A DNA stretch of 64,000 nt from Marsupella aquatica (lineage: Eukaryota; Plantae; Marchantiophyta): NCBI GenBank assembly GCA_973895155.1, contig OZ316896.1:22215722-22279721 (forward strand), written 5' to 3'. The notes under the pieces are model-generated. The model had not been told where the DNA came from, did no database searches, and worked only from the letters and a program-made list of their open reading frames with translations. Position 1 is the first letter of the stretch, and every line of letters starts with the position of its first letter. The position numbers and the translations under genes are program-made. Positions 1 to 56,451 of this stretch are shown piece after piece.

Positions 1-25
1 TCCGCTCTTTCTTCTCTCGCTCGTC

Positions 26-16870: not shown

Positions 16871-19800
16871 ATGGACCACCAGGTTTTCCTGGTCAGGCCC
16901 CCCGGCTTGACAAACGTGAGAGGAGCGCCCGCCAGGGGTGTGACGCGGCTCCTTCGAGTGGAGGACCATGGCATCATTTTGACGAACTTGACACCACATC
17001 CAGGGCAGCCGCTGGAGTACAGCTTCGAAAACTTGGCTAATGTCAGAGCTTCAAGCGAAGACAGTAGTGAGCTTTCTGTTGACTTGCTCGATAGCGGCAC
17101 GACGCTAAAGTTCTCCACTGAAGCAAGACCTGCTCTTCTCACTGCTCTTCATAACCGACTAGATGAAGTCAACGGCATTGGTAAGTCAGTGCAATCTTCT
17201 GAGCATTTCTAATCTGTTTCACTTATGTCACAAATGCTGACCCGTGCTTCTTTAGTAGAAGTCAGCCACCCTGGCCGACTCACTAGCTGGGTAGCCTGGA
17301 CGCTTGCTTATGTACTTTTGCAGGTATCAGCATTAACAAAAATATCTCAAAAATAATGATTTTCTTCGGACGATGATGCATAAATTCTGGTCACGTTCAT
17401 TCGCCACTCTCCCAAAAATCTTCCGACGATTTATTAAGATCAAAACAGCTCTGATCTCAATTCTCAAGAGATACCATTTTGCAACGCTGCATTTTAGCGG
17501 ATGGCTATCGTTCCCACCTTGAATGGAAAGAAATGGTGTCGGCAATCCTTCGTGGACCTCTTGGGCTGGAAGAATCATCGATTATGCTTAATGTTATGGA
17601 TCCACTGTAAGTTGCGGTAGCCCGAGGAAATTCACTCACGGCGATCTCACACTACAAGCGTTGAGGGCTGGACGGTACTTGACACTACAGCGAAGGACCG
17701 ATATGCTATAAATATTTTCCTGAGGATGGGACTGTGCGTGTGGCATTTTGAAACTGTTCCGATCTTCCCTGCATCAGTAGACGAGCTCTAGGTCGATTTT
17801 TAATCCTGGGGAGGAAGGAGATTATCCAGCGAAAAGACACAATGCAGGTTTCCCGTGGGCGGGGGTTGGGAGATCTGGAACATATTGGAGCGGTTTCATT
17901 TTTCGAAGGAATTACCTGGAGTTACTCATAAAGTGCAGAAGGGAGGGACTGGACAAAGAAGGCTGTTTAGCAGCTACTGCTATTGATGCATTAGCTACAT
18001 TGCCTACAACATTGCGGGAGATCGTTTTGTTGACCTAGAGGAGCTTGAAAGCTCTGCCGAACCTCTTCTATAGCAGTGTGGAATTTTACTCGCGATTCCT
18101 TCAGAAATCCCGCGGTCCTGACATTCTTTTCCCGATGCTATGGCCTCGAGCGCCGGAGCAGCTTTGATCCCAAAGCTGCCCTTGGAGGGCATTTTTATGT
18201 CAGATCTGTGGAAAACATAATTAATGGGATTCTACAATGACGCATTTTATTTCTGACGATGATAGACAGTGTCTTGCATCTACCGGTGTAGTGAACTGTT
18301 TGTGTGTTCGTGCAGTCTAGATCTCTTTCAATGTCATGGCAAGAAGTAACTTTCAGCTCGAGGTCCGCTGGATGGACTAGCAGGGTCGGTTGGGGCTCTT
18401 CAATTTCCAGAGAGGGGTGCTAGATTTTACTTTGTATTGCAAATAAGTTGTTGAGAAGAGGCTGAATTTGATGGGAGGGTTGTAGATAATATGATTCCAT
18501 GATGGATAATATCATTGCGTCTCCTCTCCTTTAACGAGAAAAGTCACTTCGATCTTAATGTTTGCATGAAAGTTCTCCACCAGGTCTGGTCGTTAACTTG
18601 CATTTGGCAACGTTGACTGCTTCTGCAGGCACTGACTTCTTTCTTCAAAAACATAGTAACCAGCGCGGTGGGCTAGCGGACACTGTTCTCCGCGTGCGTA
18701 GTGCCTCGCTTGTGAAAATGGTGAGCACTGGAGTCCGGCAAGAAAGACGAAAGGTAATCTTTTTTCTTCAAGACAGCTCATTTAGTGCACAAATCTCTCC
18801 TACAGGAGAAACTTTGACTATTCTGAAGTTCAGGTAGGTGATGCTATGCCGATCAGTAACAATATTGCCATTCACGTTCGTAATCTTTCGTGTGTAAGTG
18901 GTATGGTGAGGGTGGATACCGGAAGCAATGATTTACAGGAAGCTTCACATCTGTCAGATATCGTCTCATGTCATGAGGGTGACTGTCGTGCAGGTCAATC
19001 CCGCAAAGAAAGTGAATTTCGAGGATATCGTCAAGATGGAAACTCTTATTGATGATGAGCATGTTGCTCTTTTATATCTCAAATCGAGAGTGATGAGGCT
19101 CTCCTTGAAAGATTCTCTTCCTTTCTTACAGGCAGTACAACTCAACATGAAGGTGTGTAGAAAGGCTTTGTAGACCTGGATGTCACATTTGAGAACATTA
19201 AGAAAGGGTCGGATATTTTAGTACTGTTCGTTTTACAATTTGTTCGTTTGCATTCCGGCTCTGAATAACAATTTTTCGTTCCGAAGACTGAACAATCTCA
19301 ATCCTATCTATTTACTAGTGCGTTTGCTCGTATTATTTTGAGCCGAAATCTTGGACAGAAAATTTGGGGTGTCGGGTGTGCCGTCAGGCGGTCTTTGAAT
19401 TTTGTAACATTGTTTGATTGACAGATGTGTCTGAGCAAAGAGATGGAAATCGAAAAAATAACGACATCTGACATGGTTGAGAATGTCGCTGCCTACTTAC
19501 GGAAAGTTGTAAGTGAAACAAATTTTGTTGACTTGATTGCAAGGGTCCGTTGGGTACATTGCCTCATTTGGTTATGTTCTTTTGAATTTAACTGTGTGAC
19601 AAAACTTCATACGTATACAATGGAATGACATCAAATTTGTGTGTTACAATAGAGAGAATCTCCAGTTCTATACGAGTTTGAAGTTGTGAAACGTCTTGAC
19701 AACGCCAAGCAAGAGCGGGGGCGCATAATCTGCATCACCAAAGACTACTTTATTGAAAAATCGGGGGATGAGGTGATAGGCGTTCACAGGTAGCCAAGCC

Positions 19801-22800
19801 AGAGACTGCTCCGGTATTTTTCTTTTGGTCATTAGCGTAAGGTTGATGGACTATCAATGACAGTCATGGTAGCTTTCTAACATTTTGCGTCTCTGAATTG
19901 TACCGTAGTCACAATCACGTCGCATCAGCAGGTGGGATGTGAGAATTGATGAGGCATGGCTTCATGCATGCAGATTAGTATCAAGCGTAAAAACGTACAA
20001 CTTATTCATTCAAATCTTACATGTTTTTCTAATGAGTATTTACAAACTTTTGTTTGACATCGTGTGCAGTCTGAGTGATGTTCTAGGTGTAGTTGCCAAT
20101 GACAAACGTCCCAAAGACGTGATGCTTGAGCTTAAATCATGGAGAGCCACCCAATATCACATTGGGGAGAGGGATAACTTTATTGCTAGTATGGCCAGTG
20201 TGATGAATTCTGGGAAAGGTTCGGAGTTCAGCATTCGCTCGGAGCCTTTTTTTAGCTACACACTTCCTGACAAGTGCCATCCAGTCTACAAGGTCAGTAA
20301 ATGGAGTATTCTAATTTTTGTGTCTTCCGGTTTTCTTCTTGTTGTTTGCTCGTGTTGCATCCCTTGCTTTTGGGTTTAGGATGAAATCGGAAGTAGTTGA
20401 CATGCGAATGCTGAGATGCCACTAACATATTGTCTTGGACTGGAGAAAGGATTCTGCATTGCTCGCCCCTTCCTTTCTGAAATGAACCTGCTAACTGTAC
20501 ATATTTTTTGAAGCAGAGTGAGTGCGAGGCTTATTTTTTGAGTCGTTTCATGACGGTGTATAACAGCAGTAGAGAGCCACCTCTCCTGAATGTTTTGCTG
20601 AAGGAGTATGCGTGCAACTTAAATGTAAGTTTAGCTGTATTCTGTGCATGTAAGAATGGTTTGCAGTTCTTTTTGGGCTGTGGCTCGTCCTGACGGCACT
20701 ATTGCTTTCTGAGCATGTTTGTGAACTGAAGCTTGTCGTAGCTTTCCATAAAGGAGCTGTCCAGTGTATCACCTGAAAGGATTTCTATGGATATTCTAGG
20801 TTGGGGACTCGCAATGCGCAGATCCGAAGGTTTTCCAGGCGGTTACTGATGTCCTAAGGGATTGCCTTGGTAAACCATCTCTCCCTCCTTTTCATTTCAG
20901 AACTGTTTCCATGGTATGATTTGCGAAGTCTCCTGATGGAAATCTAACACCGAGTTGGTCTCCGACCAGGAGGTTCTGGACAAGATATTGTCTGCGCAAC
21001 AACTTGCTGCGTTGTATTGCAAAGACTTCTCGCATCAAAAGTATGTTTTGAAGCAGTTAAACAGATGCCTGATTTTTCAGCTCTTCTCGTTCTGGTAAGT
21101 TCATGTTACAGTAATCTGTTTTCTGTCCCTTTTCCAGGGGTGCCAGGCGTTCCCGTTTTGAGGGATGCTTGCAGCCCGTTAACCGTATGGATGATGTTTT
21201 GACCTCGAATGCATCGTCTTATGCAAGACGACTAATTTTGAGACCGGTCCTTTGACTGATACTGTTGTCATCCTTGACTCGACAGTGCATGCGATCAGAT
21301 AGTGCTGTATTGGCGTATCTTGCTACAACCGTTTTCAGAGCAGCCCTGAAGCTGAATTCGGATCAAGGAGGAGACGTGGGGAATGTCACTAGGGTATGCT
21401 TGAAACATTTTCCGGTAAAACTTTGAAGGAGGATTACAGTTCCGGGTATGCTGAGCAATCTGTAGAGGATTTGGCTTAGGGATTCGCTGGACCAAGAAAT
21501 CGTTTCTAACCTTCGTCATGTAAACTGCAGCTCGAGTCAGCAAATAAGTTGTCTGTCTTAAGTGCCGACAATTTGCAACAACTTGTTTCCCTACTTCACA
21601 CCAATTCTCTGATTTCGTCTAATGTTCTTCAGGTACTCTGGCCTGCTTAAACTCTGAACTTCAGGTTTCTTTGACCTCGCATATGTTACTCGCAACTTTG
21701 TTTTGTTAAGCTTTGGAATTAATTTTGATCCAGATCCTCCTCCGAAGGACTTTGACTTCGTGGTCAGGATCTGGCCATTGGACTTATGACGTAATGTAGC
21801 CTTATCCGATTTCTTTTGATGTTCAGATTGTGGGTCTACTGGAGATTTTTACTCTAGCATTGAGTTCGCAACCATCTGATAGTGAGGCAGGACGGATGTG
21901 GATCAAGGTAAATACTAGGACATTGTGGTGTCAGGTGTGCTCGAGCTGATTCTCCCAAATCATAATTTCTTATCTACTCGTATAAATGGAACATGGTTTT
22001 GGCTCACATTGGGAAATTGCGTGGATGCATCAGGCATTCGAGTTTTCAGTCTTGGCTGCGGCTGATGTTCTTTGTACTATAAGCAGGTTTCCTAGCGCTG
22101 TCGTCTTCCGCAGGTATCTTCTTGTTACACTGTCCTACAAGAAATAAATAATCGAAGCGCTCTGATTCTGCAACATAAACGTGAGCCGATGCATACTAGT
22201 TACGTCACTGTATTATACCTCTCTAGGAAGCTGACCGTAGAGTTGAAATTGTTCAACTTTCTCCTGACAATTTTGTTATTGTGGCCAGTAACTCGGTGTT
22301 GTTGAAGGGTCTGCTTACTCAAACATCTCCCGTTACTGCAGGCCATTTGCAAGTACGTTCGCACGAAAGTATGAATTCCATTTGCATTTGAAAGACGTTT
22401 TGCAAAATTCGAGTGGACTTTGCAGTCTGTTCACGAGACTGAGCTGCTTGCTTCTGATACCTTGGGGTGTGATGTGTAACAATCTGTCGCAGAGAGTTTG
22501 TCTAGGAAAGTGTGTGGTCCTTCTGCACCTAAAAAACGCTATCTTCTCAAAGAAACAAGAAACAAGAACGTTAAGTGGCACACTGGTTTACCTTATGTTG
22601 GAAGGTAGTAGAGATGCACGGAAGCTGCTGGAGAATATTCTTCCAAAGGTGGGGTTTATTTCTGTTGGCAAGTATTTACTCAAAAGATTTGATTTTACTA
22701 TTCTTGAAACATCGAATTACAGAATCTAACTTGTCCTTTTTGGTTGAAGGGTGTAATGCTGTTATATGCAACAAAGATCACGGAGCTGTTATTTGCTTCT

Positions 22801-25800
22801 AAGGTATGAAAATTTGCCGGCGTTCTAGAGAATTTATGGCCAAATGAATTTTGTTCGTATCTAGATGCGCCACCATGCATTAGTAGAGGAAACATTTTGT
22901 TGTGCACGCTATTCGTTTGAGCCGTTCAATTTCATCATTCGAACAACTAGAGTTTTTCAGTGTGCCTAAAATTTTGATTTACACATAAGTAGTTGTTTGT
23001 GATTTCAGGAAAGGACCCCTAACAAATTCCCTGCATGGATGGAGGTCCTGGAGATGTTGCGTTTGCACACTCTAGAGACACCTGGTTTGGTGTGGAATGA
23101 CATCAAGAGATCGGAGCTTCAAAAGGTACTCGAGGAACTAAACTGAGGAAATAACGTGGGGTTGTGTATTTGTCACTTTCTCGTAGATCATTGAACAGAG
23201 AACGGAAGTCCACTGAACTTTGTGATCCAAGATACGCAGAATGGTATAGAAAATGTACTGACAGCTGCCATTTTGTTTTTCTCGTGGCACCAGTTTCTTA
23301 AGGATGAGGTGGAAGGATATGAAGTTGCATCAGCAAAGAATCGTGACTTACTGTATAACAGTGCAGATGTGCAGCTGGTCTACTCGAGTGCGAGTGAGGG
23401 TGAAGGTAAGACAAGTTTGTGACGTTTGACATTGTGAGATAAATCAGCTTGAATGCTTGTTGGCTCCTCTTTGGTGAGAGTCGAATCTAGTTCTTTCCGC
23501 TTTCAGTAGATTGCAGCCTTGACGTCAGGGGTGATTGTCTGGGTTCATCAGGGTTGCAATGTGGATCACTCTTGCAGGTTCTGTCATTGGAGGAATCCAC
23601 CTGGAACTCCTTGTTGATCATTCCCCTCCTCCAGACAGTCCGAACAGCAATTTCTGGAAGGTAGTAGTGGGTCTATTCAAAAGCAAGGTTCTTGTGTGTC
23701 GTTCGGATGCTTAGCACAAAGACATTTTGCTTGATTTGTTTTTAAAAGTTAATCATAGATAGCCGTAGTTTGAATAGCTTTTGTGAAACACATTGCCTCA
23801 GGGTTTTCCGAGTCCTTTGGGGCACGCGAAGGGACTTCATCATCCCATCCCCCATTTTAATACTGCCAGATCCATCTTGACCTGTGATAGGATTCAATTT
23901 CAACTGTCAACAAGCAAGGAATTCTGGATTATTGAATTGAGCAAAAGAATTCGGTGCCTTTGGTATCAATCTTCAGTGTCTATCTTTGTGATCATATTGC
24001 TCATTTTGCTGAGGACTCTCCGTGACTGATTGACTTACTGACTGACTTGATCTTGGGCTATGATTTGCTGAGCAGCTGAAAAATCCTCTATCACTTTTCC
24101 AGTCAGTATTCCAGGCCATGGTGCTTGGCTTCACACCTCTATTTGGGCACAGTAGTTTACCGGAGGTTGATCTTCGGCTGGCAGCACATGCTTTGACGTG
24201 GCTGTATGAAAAATACGCAGAGCAAGTTTCCTTTGGCGTTGAGACGTTAAATGTCATTGAGGTATGATAATTTAGATTCTCTCTTTGCTTTGACCTCTAC
24301 ATAGACTTAAGCTGTTAGTGTTTAGTCTGTCTGATGATGCCTGGGGAGCGGGATGTTTGTCGGTTGTCACATAGCCCCGGAATATTGAACATGTTTTCAA
24401 AGTTGTATCCTGTCAAGTCTGTCGTGGATTTTGCATTTTCAATCAGGTTTGAACATTTCTTCGCTTTGAATGACATAGTCTATATGCTTATTTATGAAAA
24501 ACACCTGCTTTTAACAATCTTCCCGCCATTCCCCCACTCCCTTCCTTTTCCTTCCCCTGTGGCGGGCCCTCGTTTTTAATTTTATAAGAAAAAAAGCACC
24601 CAAGGTTCTTCGGTCGCGTTAGTCCATCACCAAAAGAACTCCTGCGCATGGAAAATGGTCATGAAAATACTATAATTTCCTTGCAGAAGGATGATTCCTA
24701 TTGCTTGTCAATTTTATCTGCAGACAGCTGTTGGAATGCTGCGGGAAGTGTATGAAACCGAACATCAGGTGTTCGTCTTCAAGCTGGTTGTGTTTCTTCT
24801 TACTACGGCAGAGTTTGGTGGGCAAGATAATGTACTCCGCTTTATACGAGCAGGGGGTGCGACTGTTGTTGTTCCTTTGGTCGTTCTTTCACTAGCCAAG
24901 GTGAACATGATGCCCTTTCATGGGTTTGAGCTTTGGTCCGGTGAAAGCAAATTTATGTTCCTTTCTTATATCTCAAAACTTTTCTCAATCACGTACACCT
25001 GAAACTGTTGGTGTTTGTTATATGTAGTGCTGCAAAGAATCACATGCTTTTGAGTGCGACGCGTGGAATTCCAAGGACACGAAACTTCGTGGTGCAATTG
25101 AAACCATCAAAGTTACTGGTGCCGATGGGGAAACACGGCTCGTACGCATCCCCTCTGGAAGGGCTCGAGAAGTCCTTGACAGAGCTGTGCAAGATGGTAG
25201 TCTAGACGCCAAAGAGGCAATCAAGTGGCAGGATGAGAAGGTTCCAGATAAGGTCCAGCTGGGCTTGGCTCTGGATCTATTGGAAGCTATATTGAGGTAT
25301 CCTGACAACATAGAGCTGAATGAGATCTGCCCTGAAATTTGTTTGGTTGTTTGTGTCAAGAGTCTCGTTTGCGTATACGGAAAGGAAATGGGAGGCAGAG
25401 CCTATTCATGATGGCTGACAATGATGTTAAATTTTTGTGATACAGGCATTCTGGAAGTGATGGCGATGTAGAGCATTTTCCACCATCTGCCGTTGTGACT
25501 TCTTTGTCCAGGGAGGAGATCTTTTGTCACTTAGTGCAGACTCTTCTGCGTGCAAAAACTCCAGTTCTTGGAAGGTATGCAACATGCAACTCTAATCTGT
25601 CACTGAATACTTTGATCAGAACTGCAACGGCTTTACAACATTTCTGCTCTGCGCATGGTCACAGAATAGTTTCCTTTTGTGAAAAATTTCCTTTTAAATG
25701 GTCTTTCGTGTCTCCTAATATGCTCAAGGAAGAAAGGAGTTGCAGTGATCTGGATTGCAAGGAATTATGTTCGATTGCATATTTTTCTCTTGTTTGCGTA

Positions 25801-28800
25801 CTGAAGATTTTTGAGAGGAGTTTCATGAACATGGGTCATCTTGGTTGACAGGATTTTGGAAATAATCACTGCCTTAGCAAAGACAAACAAGAGTGCAATG
25901 TCGAGGCTTTACAAGATGGGTGCTTTTGAGATCCTTTTGTGGAAGCTTCTGGCAGGGGATGTCGTTGAGAACGATAAAGTTTTAATTGCAAAGTTCCTGC
26001 AGCAGAGTCACCTTCACCAGGTGATTTGCCAATTTATTAAGTGGGGCTGCTGTGAACCTTTTTCATTTTCCCTGATGTCATCAATTTTAAGCGACGATCA
26101 ATGTTTAAGACTCTTTTGTGTGAGAGCCATGTGTTGGTTAGCTGCATTTATGGTTCACGTTGTAGTTGAATGCTTTCGTCGTTTTCCCAATCAAGTGTTA
26201 CCGCGGTACTTGGTTAGTTCGTACTGCCACACATCCTGCCTAAATCATAGTATTATTAGATCAGTCTCGCTAAATCATGATTGCTTAACAAATCCTGTCT
26301 ACATTGATGGGCAGGATCTTGACTCCATTCCTAACGGGACAGGGAAGGGTCATGAGCGGGGACACTCACCCTGGGAAGACAGCATTCTGCGCCTGTATCT
26401 TCCAGAAGGACTGATCTTGAAGCTCATATCAGAGGTTTGAGTCGTTCGTTTTGGCATGGTTCTTCTTGCCCTGGCATCCATTGCAACAAACTACTCTTAC
26501 AGAAAGGTTCTTGAAGCATTTCATTAGTCAATGGCATAGTGTATTAGCTTTAACTGTAAAGTTTTTGAACTTTCACAGGGGCCACAATCATTCGTTGCAC
26601 TCATCAATTCTGAACAAGATGCTCCAGAGGTTATTTGGAATGCGGAAATGAGGAAGCTTCTGCTGGAGCATCTTACCAACGAGCTAGAGCCGTACGTTAA
26701 ATTTCGAGCTTCAGATCCCTTGGCGTTGTACATTCATATGCCAAGGTCTCCCTTGGTTTATCCAGAACTTGCTGGTAACGACATAATCCAAAAGTTTATG
26801 ACTTTTTAGTCTTCGACATCTCACTTCGCTTCCATTCGTGTGAGAGCCTACTTTTGAGATGAGCGGCTCGCATGGAAGGATCTTGTGTGAACCATAGTCT
26901 TTCGTTGGAGCATACTTTTGTGTCAGACAGGGTGCTTGAAGAAAATGTCAGGCATTAACATTTTCCATTATGGTAGCAGATTCGGTTTTTGCTGCACCAT
27001 TTTACTTGCAAAACTTGCTGGATGACAAACGCTTCCCAACATACCAGATCAATGATTCAGTTGGCTTCTTCAACAGCCTAATGTTGGTGAGTGGTTCTTA
27101 ATGATCTGTGTTATGGAAGAGAATTTTTTCCATGTTATCTTACGTTTGGTAATAAAGGTTGATGCGGCCTGCTGGCTGGTAATTTTTTCTCACGTTTCGA
27201 TTTTCATTTCTTTGCTTTTACTTTCGCCATGACAATATGGTGGGTCTGGTTACTGGCAGGATCTACGGAAATCTCTGGCAACCGTGTCAAACGGTTCCCC
27301 AGCTGGATCTGGCGGAGCCTTGTGGCGTAAGGAGATGCCCCGAATACACCTCTTACTTCAATCTCAGGTCCTACAGTTTGTTTCCTTAATACGCAGATTT
27401 GGCTCTCCTGCTTTGTTATCTGTTGTTCTCAGTTGAATCAAACGATTCATGTATTTTCAACTTTACATGACATGAAGTTTTGGTGACGTTGTATTCGCGT
27501 CTTGTCCTACTTGCAGGCTCTTTTGCTAGAGCGATATCCTCAGCTGGTACTACCTAGTGATCTGGAATCGACAGCGATAGGTCTTGCCAATCCTGCACTC
27601 CGAACTTCGCTTGCTCAAAAGGATGAAGTTCCTCTTAGTGTAACAGAGATTCTTCAACAAACAACTAGAATTCTGAAAAGATTTTGCTATGTTTGTACCA
27701 GGTAAGAACTCTTCTGGCCCCTACATTTGAAGTACAGAATCGACACTGGCAACCTGACTTTGGACAGGATAGGGACTCGTTGGTTGTGCTGGGAATGAAT
27801 GAATTTAAAATCCACGGGGAATTAAATGGGTTATACCAAAGGTGGAGCTACTTGTCTTGAGAAACACTGCTTTGGTCTTAAGCATTACCTCAGCTTCGTG
27901 TAAGGATCGCTGGGCGCTGATGCTGTTCACGAATTGATCACGTATCTTCTTGCAGAGAAGGTGAAGTCCCAACTGCTACTCTAAATTTTTCTCTCAGCGT
28001 GCTGGGACTGGGACCAAAGCTAAAACACGACGTTGAGGAGAACAGCAGTAGTACTTCGAGTCTCGAATCTGCGGTCGCAGGTTCTCTTTTTGTGCTCGAG
28101 CTTGCCTCCTCAACAAGGTAATACAAATACGATACATCCAGTAAATCAAGTTGAAGATCGCAGTGCGTTGGGTCCAATAGCTGTAGTGAAGTTATTGATC
28201 AGTTGTTATGGTTTTCAGGAAAGGGAGGGAGCTTTTGCGGGATGATATTAGATGGAGAAAAGGGTTCTGGTGGGCTATCTGCACAGCCGCTAGCGATGCT
28301 GCAGCTGTTCCCCCAAGAGGCCCTAGCCCAGTCTCCTTTGCTGCCTTGGGTTGTCTTAAGCACTTTGCCGAAGATGAACAATTTTGCGATCGTATCATGA
28401 AGCAGGTGTGTCTTTGGTTGCGGGAGAACTGTCTTCTCTCTTCTAGTTTGGCACGCGTGACTGCAATCGATTATTGTTAGAACTGATCAATTTACCATCA
28501 CTCTGTCGTGAAGTTTAAGTAAGGAAAGGAAATCTCTCTCTCTATATATATATATCGACTTTGAAGTTCATCCTGCTCAATAGCTGCACAATAAATTACA
28601 AGTCGGTGGCTAACTCATAAGCAAAGACAAGTCCTTGATTTCTACAGCATTTGACCGATGAAAATGAAGTTCACATTCGTCACGATGGCTTCCATTAACT
28701 CTTGGTCCATGTTGGCAGGCTTTGTATATTCCTTTGCTTCTGCTGGCAGTCCCACCTGTTGATGCGGCTGTGAAGGCTCAAGATTCAAAGTCTGCGCTAC

Positions 28801-31800
28801 TCTACTCCGCAGCAGATGTTCTGGGTGCTCTTGTCCGGATGCTAGATCAGGCAGGGGGGTCTAATCCTTCTGAACGGCAGAAACTGGGACAAGGCGTTAT
28901 CTCCAGACTGATTCCAGCTCCCTTATTGTCATGCTTACAGCAAGAAGAGGGAGTGGAGAAATTTATCAATTTGATAGCCTCAGATGTTGTGGAACCCTTG
29001 GCGTTGTGGACAGCCGAAGTCCGGACCGAGCTCCGAACCCGACTTAGTGAACGCCTTCAACAGCATAATGCCAGTCTTGCCTCCGGGAGTGCTCCATCTG
29101 GGGATGAGCTTGAGTGGTTGCAAAGCTTTCAGTACGAGTCCGTCAAGGGAGAGCTTATTGTAGGTGGTCTGTTCGTGAAATCCGTCGCGGGTGGACAATG
29201 GGGAAGCTCCAGTTTACCTGCTGGTCACGAATTTCTAGATGGCATAATGGAGTACTTGGCCGTCACCCAGGAGGTTTTGTTTGTACAGGACAAGGAAGTT
29301 GAAAAGAGGGAAGTTGGAGAAGAGAGAAGAGACATTGAAGATGAAGAGTCGGTGAAAAAGGAAAGAGAAGAAAAGGAGCAGGCAGCTGTTGCAGAATACC
29401 TCACGGTTTTGGCTGCTCTTAGAGAAGGGTTGAAGTATGCCATCAAGTGTGACAGAGGCGACATCCTTGAACATGTGCAACCCTCAGCTCTTGCCAAGAT
29501 TGTAGTGGGAGGCAAAAGCCATCCAGAGGCATGTGTTGAGATTTCTACTATTGTGAAGGTGTTAGCTGAGCATAAGCTATCCAGGGATGCAATGCTACGG
29601 TCTGAACTGATGCAGGCTCTAACCGTGCAGCTATGGCAAGCTGCGACATCTAGTGGTGAGGAACATCTGAAGGAGGATATTCTGATGGAAACTCTTGATG
29701 CATTCCTCCTCCTAAGTGAGAGAATTCCCGCTACTTTGTCCGCCACCAACTACTTTGCCAACTGTGGAGCGCTTCTCCCCCTTCTGGCAATTTTCTGCCA
29801 TGTAGATCTTCCCAGCCTGGATGGAGATGATATTGGCATTTCAACAGCGCAGAATATACCCTTCGAAGGGAGACTGTTGGCTGCCCAAACCTTGGGCCAG
29901 CTTTTGTTGGCTGGCAGTGGAGTGAGCCGCCGATCCAAGTTGCTTAATGATATTTCCAAACAGAAGATGTTGCTAAATGGAAATGGCTCAGCGAATGGGC
30001 ACAAGACGACTCATGAAGGGATTGGGGAAGCAACAGATATGTATCAACTCGTCAATTTGCTTGAGCCCAGCTCTGGTGGTGACAAATCAGAACCACTAGT
30101 CATAGCGACATTGCTTCTTCTCCTACCCGTGGACCTATTATCCACTTTGGCCAGGGACCCACAGGGAGGTTGTAAGGCTTATGATGGCTCTTCTCAGTCT
30201 CCGAGACTGGTATGGGACCAAGAGACCCGAACTCGTGTAAAAATTGTTTTGTCCAAGGAAGCAGCAAAGGTGCAGGAGGTTGTGAAGACAAAAGGGCTGG
30301 TGGCTATGCCTTCATGGTCCTTAAGCAAGCGACGACCTGCGTTCTTGCGGAGTATCTTAGTCACCATATCGGACAATGAAACAAGGCCATTGTTCAGGGA
30401 TGAGGCTGGAGACGATTATGCACTCGAGATGTATCTAGGTGGCTTTTTTGTGGACCAATTTTTGAGAGATCCTGGCTATGATTTTGGCAAATTGCTTGAG
30501 GAACGATTCTCGCGAGAGATCCGGAAGGCTGTGGTCATAGGGGCGCCTTCTGATGGATTCAATGCATATGAGTTCAGTTTTGATGACAGGAGACGGCTTC
30601 TCCTTGCCTTGATCTTACTATTCAAAGGGCGCCCAGCTCTACTCTCTGGACACTCTAATCTGGATATATTTTTCCCAGTTTACGAGCTTATTAGTAGTGG
30701 CAGTGGGATGGAAAGACGCGCTCTATCACAAGCCGCAATGCTTTTATTTCATTGCACAGCTAATAGTCCAGATATTGCTGATTGTATGAGTTCCTCGGAA
30801 CTGATCTACACGTTGGCAACTTTCCTGGAATTAAAAGTTCCTCCCTCAGACGCGGGTAGTGCGGGAACGGATCCCAGATTATGCAGCCTCATGCTATTGC
30901 TCCGCCTGATTCGCCTCAGCAGTGCAACAGTAGAGATAGCTCTCAAACTGGGTTTCGTGTCAAAGGTAGCTGACATTGTGCTCAATGTTGATGACTCGGC
31001 CGTTGTTCGGCAACGGGCAGCGGAGTGTCTAGCAGTTATGTGTTCGGACAAAAGGAGGGGCCATGAGGTCACGAGATTGTTGGAAAATCTCGTTCCTCAA
31101 AATGCTAAAGGATATGGAGCATGGAATATACCTTTGGGCAACATTCGTGAGGAATCTGTTGACTCGAGAACTATGAACCATTTTCTGCGATATCGTTTCC
31201 CTTGCAGTTGGTGGACACTGGACACCCCAGAGGGAACCACGGTAACTGAAGTACCAGAGCCCATGGGCCCCGTCACCGTTGTTGATGCAACTGTGACTTT
31301 CCCAAATGGAAAGCTTTCTCACTTCAATGACGATGCCGAGGGTGTGTTTAAAAGAAGTATTGCGGCAATGGCTAATGTCGAGATCCGAGATGTAAATATA
31401 TTAAGAAAGCGTGCCGGGAGCTTAATGATTGACTTCCAAGTTTTTTTCAGGCGTAGACAAGATTCTGGAAGGACATATCATTATCGTGAACCTGAGGTAG
31501 AAGCTCGTGCGTTTAAAGAGAAACTAGAGAGGGAGGGGACGAAGTTGTTTTCAAGTCGATTCTTTGAATCAATGGGGACACCTAGAGTGACATCAATTGC
31601 TTTGAATCACATCGCCAATAACCTTCAGTCGTCCCCTCTGAAAAGCAACTCTCTCCCAAGCGAGGGAAGCGTTGGGAATCCAACCGTTCAAATAGTGTAC
31701 ATGGCTGCTGGTCAAGCCCCACCCTTGAGAACGAACAGCACAGGAAAGGATGTGAATGTCATATATGTGCAGGGTAATCCAACGTCAGAGCAGCTTCTGA

Positions 31801-34355
31801 AGGCATCTGGGATAGACTTTGGAGATCAGGGGAATTTTGTGCTCCCACAGCAACCTCAAATAGTGTACCAGCTTCCTCCGGGCAGCACGGGGTCACCTCA
31901 ACCTCAGGTCATTTACCAAGCTTCACCGGGGCAGTCGTCAATGCTTGGGCAAGCAACTGGATATCTACCACAACTTCAATCATCTGTAGACATGTCGACT
32001 GTCATTGCTGCGAAGCCCCAGCAAGTCCCCACTTTGGTATCGGAAAGTAGAGGACATCCTCCTTTGTCTCAGGACATCTATACAAATGGTTTTACATCTT
32101 CCTTTCCAGATTCATTCTTGCCAGGATTGCAAGGCTCTCTCTCGCCCGCGCCATCTACTCCCACACGTACACCTTCATTGCCTACAATGTCATCTCCACC
32201 TTCATCCCTACCATCTTTCAAGTCGTTGCCCAGCATATCTCCCTTCTCCTCACCACTTCCCCCATCCTCCAATAGAAGCAGTATTCCCAGTGCTGTATCT
32301 CCACCAACACCACCACTACCTGTTGCACCTGCCAGAGCATCCCCTCCTCCAGCACCTCCGGTCTCAGGTATACGGAGTCCACCACCTCCTCCGCCACCCC
32401 CAGGTGGAGCTTCTCGTGGTCCTCCACCACCTCCACCACCCCCAGGGGGAGCTGCTCGAGATCCTCCTCCTCCACCTCCACCACTCCCAGGGGGAGCTTC
32501 TCGAGGTCCTCCTCCACCTCCACCACCCCCAGGTGGAGCATCTCGAGGCCCTCCTCCACCTCCACCACCCCCAGGTGGAGCATCTCGAGGCCCTCCTCCA
32601 CCTCCACCACCCCCAGGTGGAGCTTCTCGTGGCCCTCCTCCACCTCCACCACCTCCAGGTGGAGCTTCTCGTGGCCCTCCGCCACCTCCACCACCACCAG
32701 GTGGAGCTTCTCGTGGTCCTCCACCTCCACCACCCCCAGGAGGAGCGACTCGTGGCCCGCCTCGACCTTCTCCATCCAAATCAAGTACTCCACCTCCTGC
32801 TTCAATGAAAGCAGCCCCGCCCCTACCACCCTCAGAAATGCTTCCCGTTGCAGGTAAGTGTGCACACTCTCTGCGATGCTTTAACTTGGATGTAATGTGG
32901 TGGATTATTTAAATGAACTTTTCGTCTCTCAAGGCTATTTCAATGTTGCTACTGTTGCAGATCTTAGGCTAATGCTGCGTTTGTCCTTTTCCAGACACGG
33001 GTGCCTCAAAGAAAAATGGTTTCATGGTTAAGTCAGAAGAAGGAAAGTGAGTCATCGATACTGAGTACTTTGGACATTTTTTCTCCGCCTAGTTGATAGT
33101 TGTGATAGTTTAAAAGTGGATTCTGTTATTTTATTATGAAGATAGTCATCAAACGCTTTGACTCACAGGCTGATATGGTGTTTCCCTTACTTTTGCAGAA
33201 TGGTGCCTCTAAGAAAAGCCATTGACCTGGTTTTGGAAGGAGCTGACATAACGGATGAAAACAAAGGACTTGCCACAGTGAATTTTCTAGAAGCATTTGA
33301 AGAAGGTCAGCTCAACCCCCAGTTTCTCTGTGCTGAGGATATGTTCATCCATTTCCTGGCTGACATGCAATCAAAGTGTGACGTCTTACTTTTTTCCTAT
33401 TTCTCGTGGTGGGATGACCAGATGAGGAAGAATTAGGGAGAATGCTAGAGAACTATCCAAAGCTTGTACAAAAATATGCTCTACAGCCACAGCTCTGCTA
33501 CGATTTGATGTGCGTTTGGGAAGAGCACTGCTTGGATCTAATGCTGCCAGAAGAGCTGGTAAGTGAAGTAGACTTCGTGATTTCGAAAGCATTGGAATTA
33601 TATCTATTCGAACTGCTGTTTTATGGCAATGACTGTGTGTAGCTGTTAGATTTAAGTTGTAAGAACCATCGCTTAGATCTTGCATTGAAGGTAGTCATTC
33701 TTATTGAAAAATTTGTGATATCGACTTTGTTGCAGGCCAAGTACAAACGGGGAATTGCAGCATTCGATCTTTGCAGATTAGATGATCCTGTACAGGCTGT
33801 TCAGGAAGCGAAGAAGAAGTTTGCAGGAATTCTGAAGACGCGGAAGTAAGTTTTCTGGATTCTCATCTCACCTATACTATGATTTTTACCACGAAAATTT
33901 GATGCAAATGATGGAAATGCAGTGGCGCTAAATGTTTATAGACACTTATTTGTAGCCAATTACAACATTACATATTTGGTTCATGTTACCGGACTGATGA
34001 CGATGGCTGTTGAACGACCCAACGCAGAGAGAAGGAATGGAAAGAGAAAAGTAAGCAGATAAAGGGAGACATGTCTGCAGAACTGGCCAAGGCTGTCGGA
34101 GGACGAAAGGTAATTTTTTTGTGGTTGTTATTTTTTGGCACAATTTTTCTTGCAGTATTCCCTAGCTCCTTAGTTTGAGAAACCTAACCACTGAGTTGTG
34201 TTTATATGCCTGATTTGAGACTAGTTTTTAAAGCAAGCCCTCGGACTTTTGGTGTTGTGCAGGAGAAGATGAATTTAGAGAACGCTCAGGATGAGTTGAA
34301 GGCAATGTCAAAGGGGAAGATCCAGAAAAAGAAGAAATCACAAGCTGGGTCATAA
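16871..34355 (+). CDS. Divergent RME-8/DNAJC13/GRV2-like protein lacking the J domain, with C-terminal SEA-like module, polyproline region and putative WH2/C-like tail; ~38 exons, ~3,000 aa (hand count)
   Basis: RME-8-like segments in order: LKFSTEARPALLTALH; YEFEVVKR...GRIICITKDYFIEK...ERDNFIASM; LQRLLASK; four IWN-type repeats PGLVWND (~23080), PEVIWNA (~26630), PLALWTA (~29000), PRLVWDQ (~30205), each followed by a (V/I)GG.(Y/F/H)L-like motif; SILRLYLPEGL...YPELADSVFAAPFYLQNLLDDKRFP. A 4.1-kb exon spans 28719-32853. The last exons (32995-33046, 33199-33305, 33422-33558, 33736-33845, ~34028-34109, 34263-34355) splice with consistent phases to TAA at 34353-34355. Confidence 0.88.
32375..32765 (+). 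repeat. Coding tandem repeat, ~42-bp unit encoding PPPPPPPP-GGASRG, nine units (FH1/WASP-type polyproline region)
   Basis: Read directly in ORF 28722..32912. Confidence 0.95.
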
Positions 34356-36968
34356 CAGTCTAGCCCAAGAGGTTGACCTGCAACCTGGGCTGTATGTCAG
34401 AGCACATTGTTTTAGCGCATTTTGCCAATTTGTAGGTGTTACCCTATTGGTGAATCAGAGTACGTGAAAGGAAATATTCCCGAGAGATAGGGCTCCAATT
34501 CATTGCGAGACAGTTCTAGTCAAGCTATTCTAAAACGTAGCAGTGTTTAGTGTGTAAAACGTAGTCAGAATGTAGAATCTATTCTTGAGGCGGGGTCATT
34601 TGATGGATCTGAGAATTCAAAGGAAGAGTTTATTTTTTAATAAGGCTGAAGCCTGAAGCAACTGCAGTTTCTCCCTTCGGAGATCATATTGAGTAAACTA
34701 CAATTTTGACGGGAGAACCCATCTTTGATGGGGAAACTATTGTGTGGGCCAGCTTTCCCCGGTAGGGTCCGAATCGGTTGAGCTCATTGTCACACTACCT
34801 TCGCCTCTCGTTGTGTCAAGTAGGAATTTCATCTGTTGGAATGAAATGGAGTGGAATCGAACGGATTTGATTTCATGCAACGATTTTGAAGGTCAGAGAG
34901 CTCCAATTTTGCAAACATCTGTCAGAGCGGGAGTGTCTTCGTCAACCGGGTGGTGCATATGTGCAGCAAAAGCATAAACACTGATTCGAAGGTCTGCATT
35001 CTGTTTACCTCTGACAGACAACAATTCTACTTTTCTTTCGTGTAAGAGTCCTCCATCAGGAGCCACAATCATCACCTCAATGGCGATTTCAATTTCAGTT
35101 TGCCAGACATGCTTTGTTACTGTATGTTTTCGCTCTGAATATCTTGGTCAACTTGGTCACTACCGCAAACGTTTACCCACTGATTTAGACCCCCAAAATA
35201 GCCTTGAATGGCCACCCTGCAAGTCTTGAAGCAAGTGAATAACTTTTTGTGATCAAAGATCGCAAACCAAGTTACTACTACCCATAGCATGTCTAGTCGA
35301 CCCATCCAAGAGATGATGAGCGGCCAACAGGGAAGGCATTGAAATAACCCGAAGTTCAAAAAAATGTAGACAAGAGCAACTTACATGGTTACCAACCCTT
35401 CAACCACTTCGGACACTTTCTCTTTGTATTTGCTGGATGTCTTGTATGACAGTCATGGAGGCATGTGTTACGTTCATAAACTTGGAAAAGATGACTTTTT
35501 GTTTATCAAGACTAATTTGTGTGTAGTGAACTGAGCTATCATAATCAGCAATGTGGATTGTCCTGAACATGAAGTATAACATCTTATCTGGCCAGTAACA
35601 TTTTATATGAACATCATGTTTACGTGATAACATCTATTTTCAATTGGGCAAATGCTTTTAATTTGTATTCAAAAGACTTGATATATACCCTCCATTGCTC
35701 TCTGCATAACTCCAAGATATGGATTCCTCCTACGTGACAGAAAGACTGGTAGCTTGGCGACTGCATGGTTGTAGACTAATTGAAAAACGTCTATTAATAG
35801 GATTTATGTAAATTTTATGGGTTTATTTTTAAAACAGTGAACCACCGATACATTAGTCTTTTTACATGAAAATGGTTGACTATTCCTAGAACTAATTTAT
35901 CTACAAGGAATTTTGTAAACCACCTTTTGTATGTCTTAGTTTACTTGTGGCTACACTCTTACCATGGCATGGGTGTTTCATCTTTCCACTCTGAATATAC
36001 TCTTACCAGGGTGGACCTCTCTCTTGTGCATGGAAGTAAATGCTGGCTTTGGACATCAATCATGGAGACATAGTGAGAGGTGTTGCTAACAACGAGAGGT
36101 CCTGCTTCCAGACACTTTGGTCCAAAAATTGCTTGCATTTACGTACAGTCTACCGTGTCTAAGTGCAGGCTCCCGGGACCCCAAGCCTGCAGTTATCCAC
36201 GTTATGCACTTCATCATAAGTGCATGGTGCACTTTTCCATATGTGTCTGTTGCACTTTCCAATAAATGTCTATGAAATCACTAATGCACTTCCACAAATG
36301 TCTTGTCAGGTCATATACATAGACTTCTCATACCCAGAATACTCATAGTGCACGATTGAACTGAATAAGTGCATGAAACTACAGTGTAGTTGTTTGTTGC
36401 ACTTATCAATAAATGCTTCTATCATATGTGTTGCAGTCATTGATTAATGCATCTATACTCTTATAGATGGAAAATGCCCTTATGTATTTGTCGTTTAGTG
36501 ACGGACGACCTGCACTTACAAACGGTGCATTTTTTGGTGCATTTACAAGGAATTTGCTATAATATTGAGGGACGACACAAACACCCTGCAGTTACCCATG
36601 GAATGCAGTTATACACGCTGCACTTAGACACGGTAGACTGTACACAGTCACAAGGGTACTAGCTTCCAAGGGTAAAGCATGAGAGCATACATGCCATGGG
36701 GTCCACAAACTAATTTCAATTAGAATCAGCTTCCAAGACCGTATAAAATGTAGATCCTTGCCTATGATGTAAGAGTTGCATCCCCGGATTTTTCCTATGT
36801 CAATGTGGTTCATAGAATGTTCCAATTCTAGTAGTCTACTTGTCTGCCAATCTATAGTGAAAGTCTGGCCATGCATTGATTTTTACACAAACTTTCCTGC
36901 AAGTGGCCTGACAAAAATTAAGCTAGATAGCTTTCTATCTAGCTTGCAAGCGGTTCCGTCGTGAATTC

Positions 36969-39950
36969 ATGGAAATTCAATCTAAAAAAACAAGTAAACA
37001 AATAACAATAGAGGATCTTCGCGCAAAAATATTATCGCTGCGCTCCTTCGCTGGTGGCTGCCTAACTGGAAACAACCTCACTGAGTTGCGAGAGGCGGAG
37101 GTTGCTCTTAGAGATTCTGAGTTCCGAGAGGCTATTGAGCTTCGTAAGAAATCAAGGATTCGGTGGCTGGGGCTCGGGGATGCCTCTACTAAATTCTTTT
37201 TTAATATTGTTAGGATCCAACAGCAGCGAGCCAGGATTCCTTGCCTTCGTCTCTCGGATGGCACATTATCTCACAACAAGGATCTGGTCCTCATAGAAGT
37301 TGGAAACTTCTACCGTTCACTCTATTCCCCGGATGCCCCGGAAACTCAGCTCAATGTACAAGCTAGAAGGAAAATGCTTCGGTTCTCCTCCAAACGAATC
37401 TCTCAAGCAGAATCCAATCAGTTAGACGCAGCCCCTTCTATGGATGAACTCTTTTCAGCAGCCAAAAAGATGAAGAAAAATAAAGCCCCAGGCCTAGACG
37501 GCCTTACAATAGAGGTCTTTTTGGGGTGTTGGGGATTCATTGCGCCAGCCTTTACCGGCATGATCTTATCTTTCTGGGCAGACGGTATCATGCTACCAGG
37601 ATTTATAGAGGGAGTAATAAAGCTGGTCCCACAATCAACTGATAAAACAAGATTGACGGATTGGAGGCCAATCACTCTTCTGAATATAGCATATAAAATC
37701 ATAGCAAAGCTGATTGCTATCAGGCTCGGGAGAGTTCTGCCAAAGATGGTAAACCCTCAACAAACAGGGTTTGTTCCTGGGCGTCAGATTCTTGATAACG
37801 TTTCTTTGGCATGGTTGGCGATAGACTGGATCTCAACAAATAACGTGCCTGCTCTATTCATAAAAATGGATTTTTCAAAAGCATTTGACCGCGTAGACCA
37901 CCGTTACATCAGGGAGACTCTCAGCACATTAGGCCTGAGCCAATCGCTTACTAGGAATATCATGGGTCTAATGATGCAAGCAACTGCTAAGGTTCATGTC
38001 AATGGGTTATTCACGGAACCCATTCCTCTCATGCGGGGAGTCCGTCAAGGATGTCCCCTCGCCCCTCTCATCTATGCATTATCGACACAGCCTCTCATGG
38101 ACGTCTTTGACGCAGCCCTACAGGCTAATGAACTGCAGGGCATTAAAATAAATAACAAACTCACTCTGTTTCATAGATTCTTTGCAGACGATCTAGGAGT
38201 TATCACCCCTGCTAAGGAATCTAGCTTCTTGGATATATGTGGAACGATGGACTTATATGAGCATGCAGCAGGGGCACGCCTAAATCTGGAGAAGACCGAG
38301 GTTCTCATTTTATGCATAGACACTCCTCCGCAATGGTTATTAGATACCAAATGTGTAATCGTTCCTATGGGCCATATATCCAGCTACTTGGGTGCCCCGA
38401 TTGGACAATATCTATCCAAGACCCAACTACATGAATATTGCCTGAAAAAATTGAACAAAAGACTCGCTTCTTGGTCGAACAAAAGCTTCTCATTCACGGG
38501 TCGTGTCCTGTTGGTAAAACAGGTCTTGTTATCCATGACAGTATTCCATATGATGTATACTAACTTCGCAGTGAGTTTTACAGACATGATTCAACGGACG
38601 TGTAAGAATTTTCTATGGGGTTATAACAAAGAGGGAGCCAGGAAAACACCATTGGTTTCCTGGGACCGGATGTGCGCCAGTAAACAAAATGGGGGCCTCG
38701 GGTTCAAGGACATAAATCTTCAGGCCACGGCATTGCTGGCCAGATGGGCCATTCGGATGATATCAGACCAGGATTCAGACTGGGCGATATTATTCTCGGC
38801 CAATCTCCGCCTGGCAGCATGGAAAAAGACGGTGTTGCTTCGCCAAGCAGGGTACACCACCATGGATCGGTTCCTATTCTCCTCCCCGTCCAGCTTTCGA
38901 GGTATGGTATACACGGCAGGTATATGGAGGGCATGGAATAAGATCAGGATCAACTTGCACTGGCAGTCTGGCTCACAAGCCATTCCAGCAAGATGGAGGA
39001 TCGAGGACTTTCTTCCTAAATTTTTCACCTCCTCAGACTTTCCTATCTCTTTGGTTCCTAGGATTATCATCGCCTGTTATCGTCTAAATATTCGGTATGT
39101 CTCTGACCTCTGGATGCAGGATCCGGGCTGTTGGGTGGACTTTTTGCCTCGTCTCTCCAGGCTGCGGGGGTTTGGGGTCATAGAGTTAGACACTCTATCT
39201 AGGATCATTTTGTCTATTCATAGCGGCCCTCCACCTTCCATTTCTTCTTCCTTCGCCGGATCCCAATGGTTCTGGTGTGGCCTTCAAAATCATCGCAGAC
39301 CTCATTTCCTCAGCAGCATGCAAGCTTATAATTTCCTACACCAGGCTGGGGGAGACATCGGCTCTCTTAACAATCGATGGGGGACGTCAGACTCCGCAGG
39401 AGATTGGGGGCGCAGGTGGAGGAGGATCTGGCGATCAGATCTGTCTAATCGTGGTAAAATCTTTTTATGGCGGGTCCTGGCTGCAGGATTATTTTCAGGA
39501 AAACGAGCTAAGCAGTGTGGACATGGAGATGGGATGTGTCCATCCTGCCCGGATCGGGTGGAGGATAATCCTCATATTTTCTTCTCCTGCAGGCAAGCTA
39601 TTTGTGCTTGGAACCGGACTGCCTGGTTCTATGAGCGGGTGCCGTCTCTCTCCCTTCTTCCAGGGGGACATTCTTTCACAAGCACATTGGACCTTGCCCT
39701 TGGTCGTACCCCACGGCTATCTGCTCGTATTTTTGTTATCTATGAAACCGTGTGGCTCCTATGGAAAAATAGAAACTCTCAGTTGTTTCAAAGCCAAACT
39801 GTAGTCTTCTCCCCCTTTCTGGCCGCATCATCTGTCGTTCAGCATCTACGTTCGGTGGCTCTTTGTTCAGACTCAGAAAAAAAGAAAAATCGTCTATACT
39901 ATGCTGAGAAGTATATCTCTGGTCCTCTGACCTCTCGTTGTCCTCGTTGA
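36969..39950 (+). CDS. LINE ORF2 remnant: reverse transcriptase plus C-terminal zf-RVT; endonuclease lost by 5' truncation
   Basis: WLGLGDASTKFFF, KAPGLDG, WRPITLLN..YKIIAK, QTGFVPGR.I.DN, KMDFSKAFDRV, RGVRQGCPLAP, FADD, YLGAPI, GGLGFKD, CPSC....E...HIFFSC. Uninterrupted 993-aa frame that stays open upstream to the insertion junction. Confidence 0.96.
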   Translation: MEIQSKKTSKQITIEDLRAKILSLRSFAGGCLTGNNLTELREAEVALRDSEFREAIELRKKSRIRWLGLGDASTKFFFNIVRIQQQRARIPCLRLSDGTLSHNKDLVLIEVGNFYRSLYSPDAPETQLNVQARRKMLRFSSKRISQAESNQLDAAPSMDELFSAAKKMKKNKAPGLDGLTIEVFLGCWGFIAPAFTGMILSFWADGIMLPGFIEGVIKLVPQSTDKTRLTDWRPITLLNIAYKIIAKLIAIRLGRVLPKMVNPQQTGFVPGRQILDNVSLAWLAIDWISTNNVPALFIKMDFSKAFDRVDHRYIRETLSTLGLSQSLTRNIMGLMMQATAKVHVNGLFTEPIPLMRGVRQGCPLAPLIYALSTQPLMDVFDAALQANELQGIKINNKLTLFHRFFADDLGVITPAKESSFLDICGTMDLYEHAAGARLNLEKTEVLILCIDTPPQWLLDTKCVIVPMGHISSYLGAPIGQYLSKTQLHEYCLKKLNKRLASWSNKSFSFTGRVLLVKQVLLSMTVFHMMYTNFAVSFTDMIQRTCKNFLWGYNKEGARKTPLVSWDRMCASKQNGGLGFKDINLQATALLARWAIRMISDQDSDWAILFSANLRLAAWKKTVLLRQAGYTTMDRFLFSSPSSFRGMVYTAGIWRAWNKIRINLHWQSGSQAIPARWRIEDFLPKFFTSSDFPISLVPRIIIACYRLNIRYVSDLWMQDPGCWVDFLPRLSRLRGFGVIELDTLSRIILSIHSGPPPSISSSFAGSQWFWCGLQNHRRPHFLSSMQAYNFLHQAGGDIGSLNNRWGTSDSAGDWGRRWRRIWRSDLSNRGKIFLWRVLAAGLFSGKRAKQCGHGDGMCPSCPDRVEDNPHIFFSCRQAICAWNRTAWFYERVPSLSLLPGGHSFTSTLDLALGRTPRLSARIFVIYETVWLLWKNRNSQLFQSQTVVFSPFLAASSVVQHLRSVALCSDSEKKKNRLYYAEKYISGPLTSRCPR

Positions 39951-54545: not shown

Positions 54546-55818
54546 GCCCCGTCGGCCCCTTTCCATCGTCTACAGTGGTGGTGCCGGACAGCTCTCTTCT
54601 TGATCGACTTTTCTGCTGTTGTTCTTCGTCTTCTTCGATTCGGTGGAGTTTTCGAGCTTTGGCTTCTCTCGTCTATCTAGAGTCGTCAGCTCGCGAGTCG
54701 CGAGGCTGCGATCGAGCGATGAGTTGGTGATTATTGTTCGTCACAGACTTCAAAGCGATATTTTCGAATGAGATTCCTGTCATAGGCGCGGAATTTGCGG
54801 CCGTCCAGGAACGAACGAGTAGCCCCTCAAAAGGCGGGGACGAGCTATTCACTTGCTGTGGGGAGAGTCGATGTAGTGTTGTAGTTGAGTAGCTCCTTCG
54901 ATCGCAAGCGAGCTCGACGACGTCGGGGAGAGTTTTCTCCCTGGCTGGCTCTCTCCCTTACTACCTCCCCCTTCGCCGAATGGTGCGTAGTATAGCTCAG
55001 AGTAGGGTATTATCATTTTATTGAACTTTTCAGTAGTAGGTCGCTTTGTCTCGCACCTTGTTGCCTGCAGGCGAATGGAGAAGGATCATTGATATTAGAG
55101 ACGTGATTTGTGCTGGGGATGTTGTGAGCGTGGACGTCGTGATTCGATGCAAGATTGAATGTGGTCGAGGCGGTGTAGCTCCTGATCGGAAAGGAGGCGA
55201 GGAAAGCCATTGAGCTTCTTGCGGCGGGGAGGAGGGAGGGAGACGGTGTTTCAGAGCTCATCGGCCGTTGAGAAGGTGGTTCTTGTCGTAGCAGTTGTCG
55301 TTGGAGACGAAGAGGCATCCGGCTGCGGATAAGGACGATCGATACTGACAGCGATCCCGCTTGTTTGCAAATTGGTCGACACTGATCTGTCTGCGATTGC
55401 ATTGTTTCGGCGTAGCCGAGCAGCTCATGTCATTCATTTTCCACCTCTTGATCTTCCAAGCTGGTAGCATTGGAAGATAGTTTGTTGGGTTCAGATTTTG
55501 GTTCGCCTTCCTACTGGTGACATAAACAAAAGCCTACGGGTCCCTTCGCGGACGGGGATCTTCCTGTCACTACAGCTTGTAAGATTTCAGCTGAGGGTAG
55601 TTTAGTTTGCTGGTCATGTCACAACCGGTAGACACCACCAACTCTAATTGCTCTCGAAGCAGTGGGGTTAGTCGAGCAGTGAAGAGACATCGTTGTGAAG
55701 AGATTTGACATGCAAGGGATTTCGGGTTAAAGAGTAGGGCAGTCTTGACTCGAGCTGATTTCCCACGTGCCCACGGTTAGGCGATCGGTTGCGGGACTGA
55801 GGCCTTCGGTTGGAGCAA

Positions 55819-56451
55819 ATGCCTGGAAAGCCGCTCGACAAAATGTTGAGGAGAGTTCAGAGCATGACGCGCAAAACAGCTTCCCAGGAAAATTTAACTA
55901 GTGATGCCAGCATCACGAATGGCAAAGACTTCAAGAGTGGCAGTAAGAAATTTGGAAGCGGAAGCATGACGCGCAAAACAGCTTCCCATGAAAATTTAAC
56001 CAGTGATGCCAGCATCACGAATGGCAAAGACTTCAAGAGTGGCAGCAAGAGATTTGGAAGCGGGAGAATGATAGGAGTGTTTGCAGTTCTGAAGTCTAGC
56101 GTCCCCAACAGGACGAAGTCGCTCTCCAGACTCGACTCTATTCCAGGCGACATTCCGCAAGGATGCTTGGCCGTGTACGTAGGTCCAGAGAAGAGGCGTT
56201 TTGTGATTAGCACCAAGTACCTTGGCCACCAACTCTTCAAGGCGTTGTTGAAGAAATGTGAAGAGGAATCCGGTTTTCATCACGAGGGAGGCCTCACGAT
56301 TGCTACTTGCGATCCCGTTTTGTTCCAACACTTGATGTGGCTAATCGAAACGAACAACCCAACGGCCAAAACGACTCGGCTGGAAGAACTGATGGACTCC
56401 TATCCTTCTCCACGAGTTCCATTCGTAGGACCACGGTCTCTCAGCGTTTGA
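55819..56451 (+). CDS. SAUR: SAUR (small auxin-up RNA) family protein with a long N-terminal extension, 210 aa, intronless
   Basis: DIPQGCLAVYVGPEKRRFVISTKYLGHQLFKALLKKCEEESGFHHEGGLTIATCDPVLFQHLMWLI is the auxin-inducible SAUR core. First ATG at 55819. Confidence 0.93.
   Translation: MPGKPLDKMLRRVQSMTRKTASQENLTSDASITNGKDFKSGSKKFGSGSMTRKTASHENLTSDASITNGKDFKSGSKRFGSGRMIGVFAVLKSSVPNRTKSLSRLDSIPGDIPQGCLAVYVGPEKRRFVISTKYLGHQLFKALLKKCEEESGFHHEGGLTIATCDPVLFQHLMWLIETNNPTAKTTRLEELMDSYPSPRVPFVGPRSLSV
55861..56064 (+). repeat. In-frame 102-bp (34-aa) tandem duplication inside the SAUR N-terminus
   Basis: SMTRKTAS(Q/H)ENLTSDASITNGKDFKSGSK(K/R)FGSG x2, with copies starting at 55861 and 55963. Confidence 0.97.

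Follow-up and report, generated by a model that had tools for sequence, protein, structure and literature searches.

The gene analysed here lies in a 64,000-nucleotide stretch of Marsupella aquatica DNA (the window), and its C-terminal tail (33736-34355) had been likened by eye to the WH2-linker-C segment of WASH-type VCA domains. This raises the question of whether the tail is an actin-binding device and, if so, of which type. The known plant actin-assembly factors are few, namely SCAR-Arp2/3, the formins and CHUP1. The intact WASH complex has been lost in most plants, according to the accessible part of PMC3689024. With so few factors and with WASH lost, the way in which plants assemble actin on their endomembranes calls for explanation.

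The gene extends over 16871-34355 on the forward strand and encodes a protein of about 3,000 aa, a J-domain-less RME-8/GRV2 relative, in about 38 exons, the 5′ exon borders being partly provisional. Its extent was taken from tblastn with the orthologue of Calypogeia fissa (P0001, 3010 aa), which tiles 16871-34352 in order, and from joints in RNA-type contigs. At the 3′ end, exons 33736-33845, 34028-34109 and 34263-34355 have GT-AG borders, their translation is exactly the peptide of the original prediction, and the stop codon lies at 34353-34355. The introns 33558/33736, 33845/34028 and 34109/34263 are skipped in contigs of relatives (runs X1, X2 and X4), near-identical joints recur at the tail introns in run X6, and the upstream introns 33046/33199 and 33305/33422 are likewise skipped in relatives' contigs. 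These contigs belong to related organisms, not to the window's own sample; four of the ten listed runs cover the tail, X6 is recorded as RNA, and RNA status was guessed for X1-X4. With such borders and joints, the spliced tail stands as it was originally quoted. Over 33190-34400, X1 and X2 each contain two contig classes of differing identity, pointing to a second paralogue or to a second species in the sample.

The N-terminal region of RME-8, with PH-like domains assigned by analogy, was located at 16871-22648 (+) by Pfam, tblastn mapping and alignment. Pfam RME-8_N matches residues 26-648 of P0001 (E 2e-37), was detected in each of the 11 family members put through the Pfam scan, and is the only Pfam match above cut-off in the full-length orthologues. 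Four IWN-like motifs are retained, in order, in the alignment. On the other hand, the DnaJ domain is absent from all 11 streptophyte family members scanned with Pfam, whereas it is present in 6 of 12 non-streptophyte relatives, and the HPD motif was not found in P0001. The blastp alignment of P0001 with the J-bearing P0061 (about 20% identity over 1,130 columns) breaks at P0061 residue 1302 and restarts at 1509 (1243 and 1407 in P0001), which spans the J domain; the stretch of the window where canonical RME-8 carries that domain, approximately 27330-28330 (+), has neither a J domain nor an HPD motif. Thus, judging from its sequence, the host protein is an RME-8/GRV2 relative of streptophytes without a J domain. 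The Trp of the canonical lipid-binding motif of the initial PH-like domain is also absent in the nine streptophyte rows aligned (9/9); the role of this residue is treated in the accessible part of PMC9642905. As the first PH-like domain lacks it, targeting to endosomes is uncertain.

A 4.1-kb exon (28719-32853, +) encodes a helical-repeat body with the last two IWN-like motifs, a conserved domain of about 130 aa, a low-complexity linker and a polyproline tract. A search with this exon scored 7,980 candidates and yielded 26 long relatives, the top ones being from Calypogeia fissa (93%) and Marchantia (69%), followed by Mesotaenium, mosses, Selaginella, ferns and Ginkgo; further searches added Chara, Closterium and Spirogloea, and no angiosperm was among the named matches to the exon. 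In a tree keeping 30 of 32 rows (P0045 and P0047 were dropped for short matches, and no plant GRV2 was included), the 15 streptophyte rows form one clade with support 100/100 on a long branch. The conserved segment of about 110-130 aa between the helical body and the linker (window 31280-31610) is present in algal members, and the fern models stop where it begins. Its pattern is reminiscent of a SEA fold, with no match in Pfam.

The polyproline tract (32379-32738, +) contains nine proline runs, each 7-8 residues long and set in a 14-residue repeat; it is FH1/VASP-like and would be expected to bind profilin. Ten runs precede the C-terminal module in P0001 and seven in the Marchantia protein P0002; the tract is short in Sphagnum and Mesotaenium and missing in the Selaginella and Physcomitrium models. 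Behind it lies a conserved module of about 190 aa, only the second half of which was covered by the earlier observation. The module begins with a helical core of about 125 aa (33027-33843, +; exons 32995-33046, 33199-33305, 33422-33558 and 33736-33845) that matches no known family or fold, and the last helix of this core (33781-33843, +), ending in L-K-x-R, is the one previously taken for a WH2. It is followed by a K/E-rich helical spacer (33844-34058, +) with the intron 33846-34027 inside it, then by a C/FAB-like helix, D-M-x-x-E-L-x-x-x-[VI]-x-x-R (34071-34271, +), with the intron 34110-34262 inside it, and lastly by a degenerate WH2-like helix, E-[LI]-K-x-[ML]-x-x-G-K-I (34293-34331, +), with a basic end.

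Nine of the 26 long relatives carry the module, as do short records from Klebsormidium, Nothoceros and Selaginella; it is missing from the fern, Ginkgo and Ceratodon-paralogue gene models examined. Two distant eukaryote records also have it. P0110 (625 aa) matches at 39% identity (E 6e-37); its N-terminus is unrelated, and proline runs of 6 and 5 lie just upstream of the module. The other, L016, is a 1.3-kb contig with the module at L016:1-746, where the apparent introns, judged by eye, are at other positions. The N-terminus of P0110 possibly comprises a zinc ribbon and a coiled coil. Since P0082 is the end of P0002, the short stand-alone records P0082-P0093 are likely fragments broken at the low-complexity linker, although they may instead represent a short isoform. 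Identity to the window's tail amounts to 45/56 in Klebsormidium, 42/56 in Selaginella, and 22/56 and 20/56 in the two distant records. The last 68 columns are gap-free across eight lineage representatives, with 19 invariant positions and 9 more of a single residue class, and the invariant residues concentrate in the C-like and terminal helices; by this alignment, conservation of the tail is far beyond chance.

Pfam gave nothing above cut-off for single exons or module members, searches of PDB sequences turned up either nothing or syntaxin-type helices at E 0.05 or worse, and the Atlas search gave no usable match. Fold searches returned nothing at E 0.001 or better, with generic helices at best (Z 6.4 and 6.0). 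No description of the family or of the module was found in the literature searched, subscription papers and bioRxiv supplements being outside that search. By these comparisons the module, unmatched in Pfam, the Atlas and the PDB, is an undescribed conserved domain carried by at least two different proteins.

The AF2 model of the first 124 residues of the Sphagnum-type orthologue L010 is a helical domain (pLDDT 84, pTM 0.76). For the full module, one helix was predicted to run over residues 107-166, from the core through the C-like segment, with pLDDT falling from 68 to 46, and the last 33 residues had pLDDT below 50, meaning that they are predicted to be unfolded alone. This continuous helix, the gap-free spacing across distant lineages, and the coiled coils and single helices that lead the structural rows are what would be expected if the tail were a rigid helical arm serving self-association, autoinhibition or a non-actin partner, in which case the C-like pattern would be that of a generic amphipathic helix. 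Canonical RME-8 also oligomerises, and its own C-terminal tail restrains it, according to the accessible part of the literature. However, the conserved hydrophobic residues recur every 4 residues and lie on two different faces of the helix, M141-V149 at 0-80 degrees and A161-M168 at 180-240, with no heptad stripe; the last 33 residues are predicted to be unfolded, and the polyproline neighbour recurs in P0110. We regard an arm of this kind as somewhat unlikely.

The WH2 and C patterns, taken from section 11 of the accessible part of PMC3298513, were run on 13 tails; the C-pattern expression is our own rendering of a verbal pattern in that source. For WH2, we required a phi-phi-x-x-phi helix, a linker of 4-10 residues and L[KR][KR][VTA]. 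Neither the whole pattern nor the L[KR][KR][VTA] anchor alone was found in any of the tails (0/13 each). At the amphipathic helix with LKT(R), the Leu directly follows the last hydrophobic residue of the helix, leaving no linker, and the Thr is replaced by I, V, L or A in seven of the eight lineage representatives. The helix itself occupies residues 106-123 of the 124-aa AF2 model, where it closes the predicted folded core, and no WH2 or thymosin match to the tail was detected in Pfam or among PDB sequences. The first WH2 of the original prediction is thus not supported.

The C-like segment fared better. Its pattern consists of three hydrophobic residues spaced by three, an Arg/Lys doublet and a closing hydrophobic residue, and in its full form it is present in 6 of the 13 tails, including that of the window (chance level: 290 of 20,000 shuffles, 3 of 442 background windows). 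The core of the pattern is present in nine, P0110 and L016 among them (139 of 20,000 shuffles, 28 of 442 background windows), and fails in four, all from mosses or moss-like. The support is modest, with a chance of 0.7-7% in shuffles, as the motif had been picked by eye, and a derivation from WASH was borne out by no test. The FAB helix of Ena/VASP probably shares the C pattern. Two further patterns, D-phi..R and a thymosin-like one using thymosin spacing (0 and 1 of 20,000 shuffles), were fitted post hoc, are not tests and were not used. The last helix is a better WH2 look-alike than the helix with LKT, yet it fails the strict pattern, having neither the double hydrophobic start nor the final Thr/Val.

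As originally stated, the tail ends basic and without an acidic Trp motif: the last 20 residues of the window's protein have a net charge of +6 and no Trp. All 13 tails carry a net charge of +2 to +7 over this stretch. A Trp near the end is confined to the four tails of moss type, where its context is basic. In these tails (P0004, P0006, P0016 and P0087) the two helices are lost, a conserved basic end is gained and the Trp stands one residue before the stop. Such persistence of the basic end in mosses where the helices decay, together with the charge range, would fit a lysine-rich binder of acidic lipid or microtubules, or a nuclear-localisation signal, the module then being a targeting device unrelated to actin; the invariant positions (D, M, E, L, A, G and I) exceed what a charge patch would need, and we find this improbable.

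Since there is no acidic-Trp end, classical Arp2/3 activation is unlikely, and the order of the elements, with the C-like helix first, the WH2-like helix last and a basic end, indicates that the tail is not a VCA. It is very improbable, too, that it represents a degenerate WASH-type WH2-C segment still activating Arp2/3, possibly helped in trans by an acidic partner. Such a segment would account for the match to the C pattern; moss and Selaginella are reported to have WASH, and aromatic residues are missing from some of its A domains (accessible part of PMC3298513). Nevertheless, no WH2 precedes the C-like helix (0/13), the acidic region is absent, the motif order is reversed and the supposed WH2 is inside the predicted folded core.

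Speaking for such a segment is P0076, an RME-8 relative with no DnaJ match, whose body carries a complete VCA-like end. Its residues 1340-1523 start with polyproline and a WH2 that Pfam scores at E 0.11, below cut-off; a C-type helix comes next, then an acidic stretch closing with a Tyr, making this end, from its motifs, a candidate Arp2/3 activator. The C-like block of the window's tail best matches the C helix of P0076 (2 of 8,008 background 18-mers were as good) and the last block best matches its WH2 (8 of 8,008); for the LKxR block, no match was picked in P0076. Against composition-matched shuffles, however, the likeness weakens: 205 of 3,000 were as good for the C-like block (37 of 3,000 when the rows were the three most distant ones), 485 of 3,000 for the last helix and 1,469 of 3,000 for the LKxR block. 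The second WH2-like helix that had been suggested at the end is the best WH2 candidate in the tail, but a weak one that does not reach significance. P0076, on a long branch, lies outside the streptophyte clade in the tree, which leaves a shared origin unsupported; as it is not placed with that clade, the two tails may have been acquired independently.

Our preferred reading, at a probability of roughly 0.45, is that the tail may bind actin through the C/FAB-like and terminal WH2-like helices, in the manner of VASP or CHUP1 on a membrane-traffic scaffold, without activating Arp2/3. The RME-8 body would sit on endomembranes and the proline runs would gather profilin-actin; the C/FAB-like helix and the basic end would grip the filament, and the last helix would hold either the barbed end or an actin monomer. 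The outcome would be a protein that tethers actin filaments to a trafficking organelle or elongates them there, in an Ena/VASP- or CHUP1-like rather than a WASH-like manner. Consistent with actin binding are the position of the module behind polyproline in the window, P0001, P0002 and P0110, the presence of the core of the C pattern in both distant records, the clustering of invariant residues in the two helices, and the polyproline-WH2-C-acidic end that P0076 carries on an RME-8 body; canonical RME-8 regulates WASH on endosomes, as stated in the accessible part of 10.1101/2024.12.19.629517. Against it, the tail is indel-free, unlike flexible VCA or VASP linkers, the shuffles weaken the likeness to P0076, and the single predicted helix joins the core to the C-like segment. 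The motifs are eroded in the moss-type tails (4/13), the polyproline is missing in two models, and only about a third of the long family members (9/26) carry the module.

A wider proposal would make the helical bundle with its C/FAB-like and WH2-like helices a mobile eukaryotic actin-assembly module. On the J-less RME-8 of non-flowering plants and their algal relatives it would form an organelle-tethered, profilin-fed, Arp2/3-independent elongator or nucleator, RME-8 scaffolds having swapped their J domain for an actin tail on more than one occasion; taken as a whole, we hold this to be unlikely. The Marchantia protein P0002, which joins an RME-8 scaffold, polyproline and a candidate actin tail, makes these ideas testable in a knock-out-friendly model. 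Even if actin is not bound, there remains a conserved module of no known family on at least two proteins.

Elsewhere in the window, an open frame of 1,007 aa (36927-39950, +) carries RVT_1 and zf-RVT and belongs to a LINE-type retrotransposon, a SAUR-type auxin-inducible gene with its N-terminal repeat duplicated is at 55801-56448 (+), and an open frame of the IRX15/GXM family is at 3-602 (+). Nine collected records (L018, L020, L021, L030, L034, L043, L048, L059 and L062) are near-identical animal-type actin genes on short contigs of bacterial or archaeal assemblies, likely contamination.

Compared with known systems, the window gene shares with RME-8/DNAJC13/GRV2 the RME-8_N match and the four IWN-like motifs in order. 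It differs in having no J domain or HPD motif and in missing the lipid-motif Trp, and it adds about 700 aa (the conserved domain, the polyproline and the C-terminal module) and falls in its own long-branch streptophyte clade. With the VCA of the WASH/WASP family it has in common a proline-rich region ahead of the C-terminal segment and a C-type hydrophobic spacing followed by Arg/Lys. In contrast to VCA, there is no WH2 before the C-like helix and no acidic-aromatic end; a predicted folded domain of 125 aa separates the polyproline from the tail, and the WH2-like unit comes last. The EVH2 of Ena/VASP (GAB, FAB and tetramer segments; accessible part of PMC3034019) is similar in that two short helices, candidates for actin binding, come after polyproline and the end is not acidic, but in the window the filament-type helix precedes the monomer-type one, which is the reverse order, and there is neither an EVH1 nor an evident terminal coiled coil. 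CHUP1, a plant organelle-linked protein whose all-helical C-terminal domain works with profilin (accessible part of 10.1101/2020.01.14.905984), and the FH1-FH2 of formins offer a further likeness, although the module is shorter than CHUP1/FH2 and has no sequence match to it. In the fold comparison the best hit was an unrelated bundle (Z 6.0, rmsd 2.2, 56 aligned), CHUP1/FH2 not being among the 50 top structural rows. The literature drawn on also included PMC7407642 and PMC3284464. By the features tested, the protein is neither a VCA, nor an Ena/VASP, nor a J-protein, and by analogy it may work like VASP or CHUP1.
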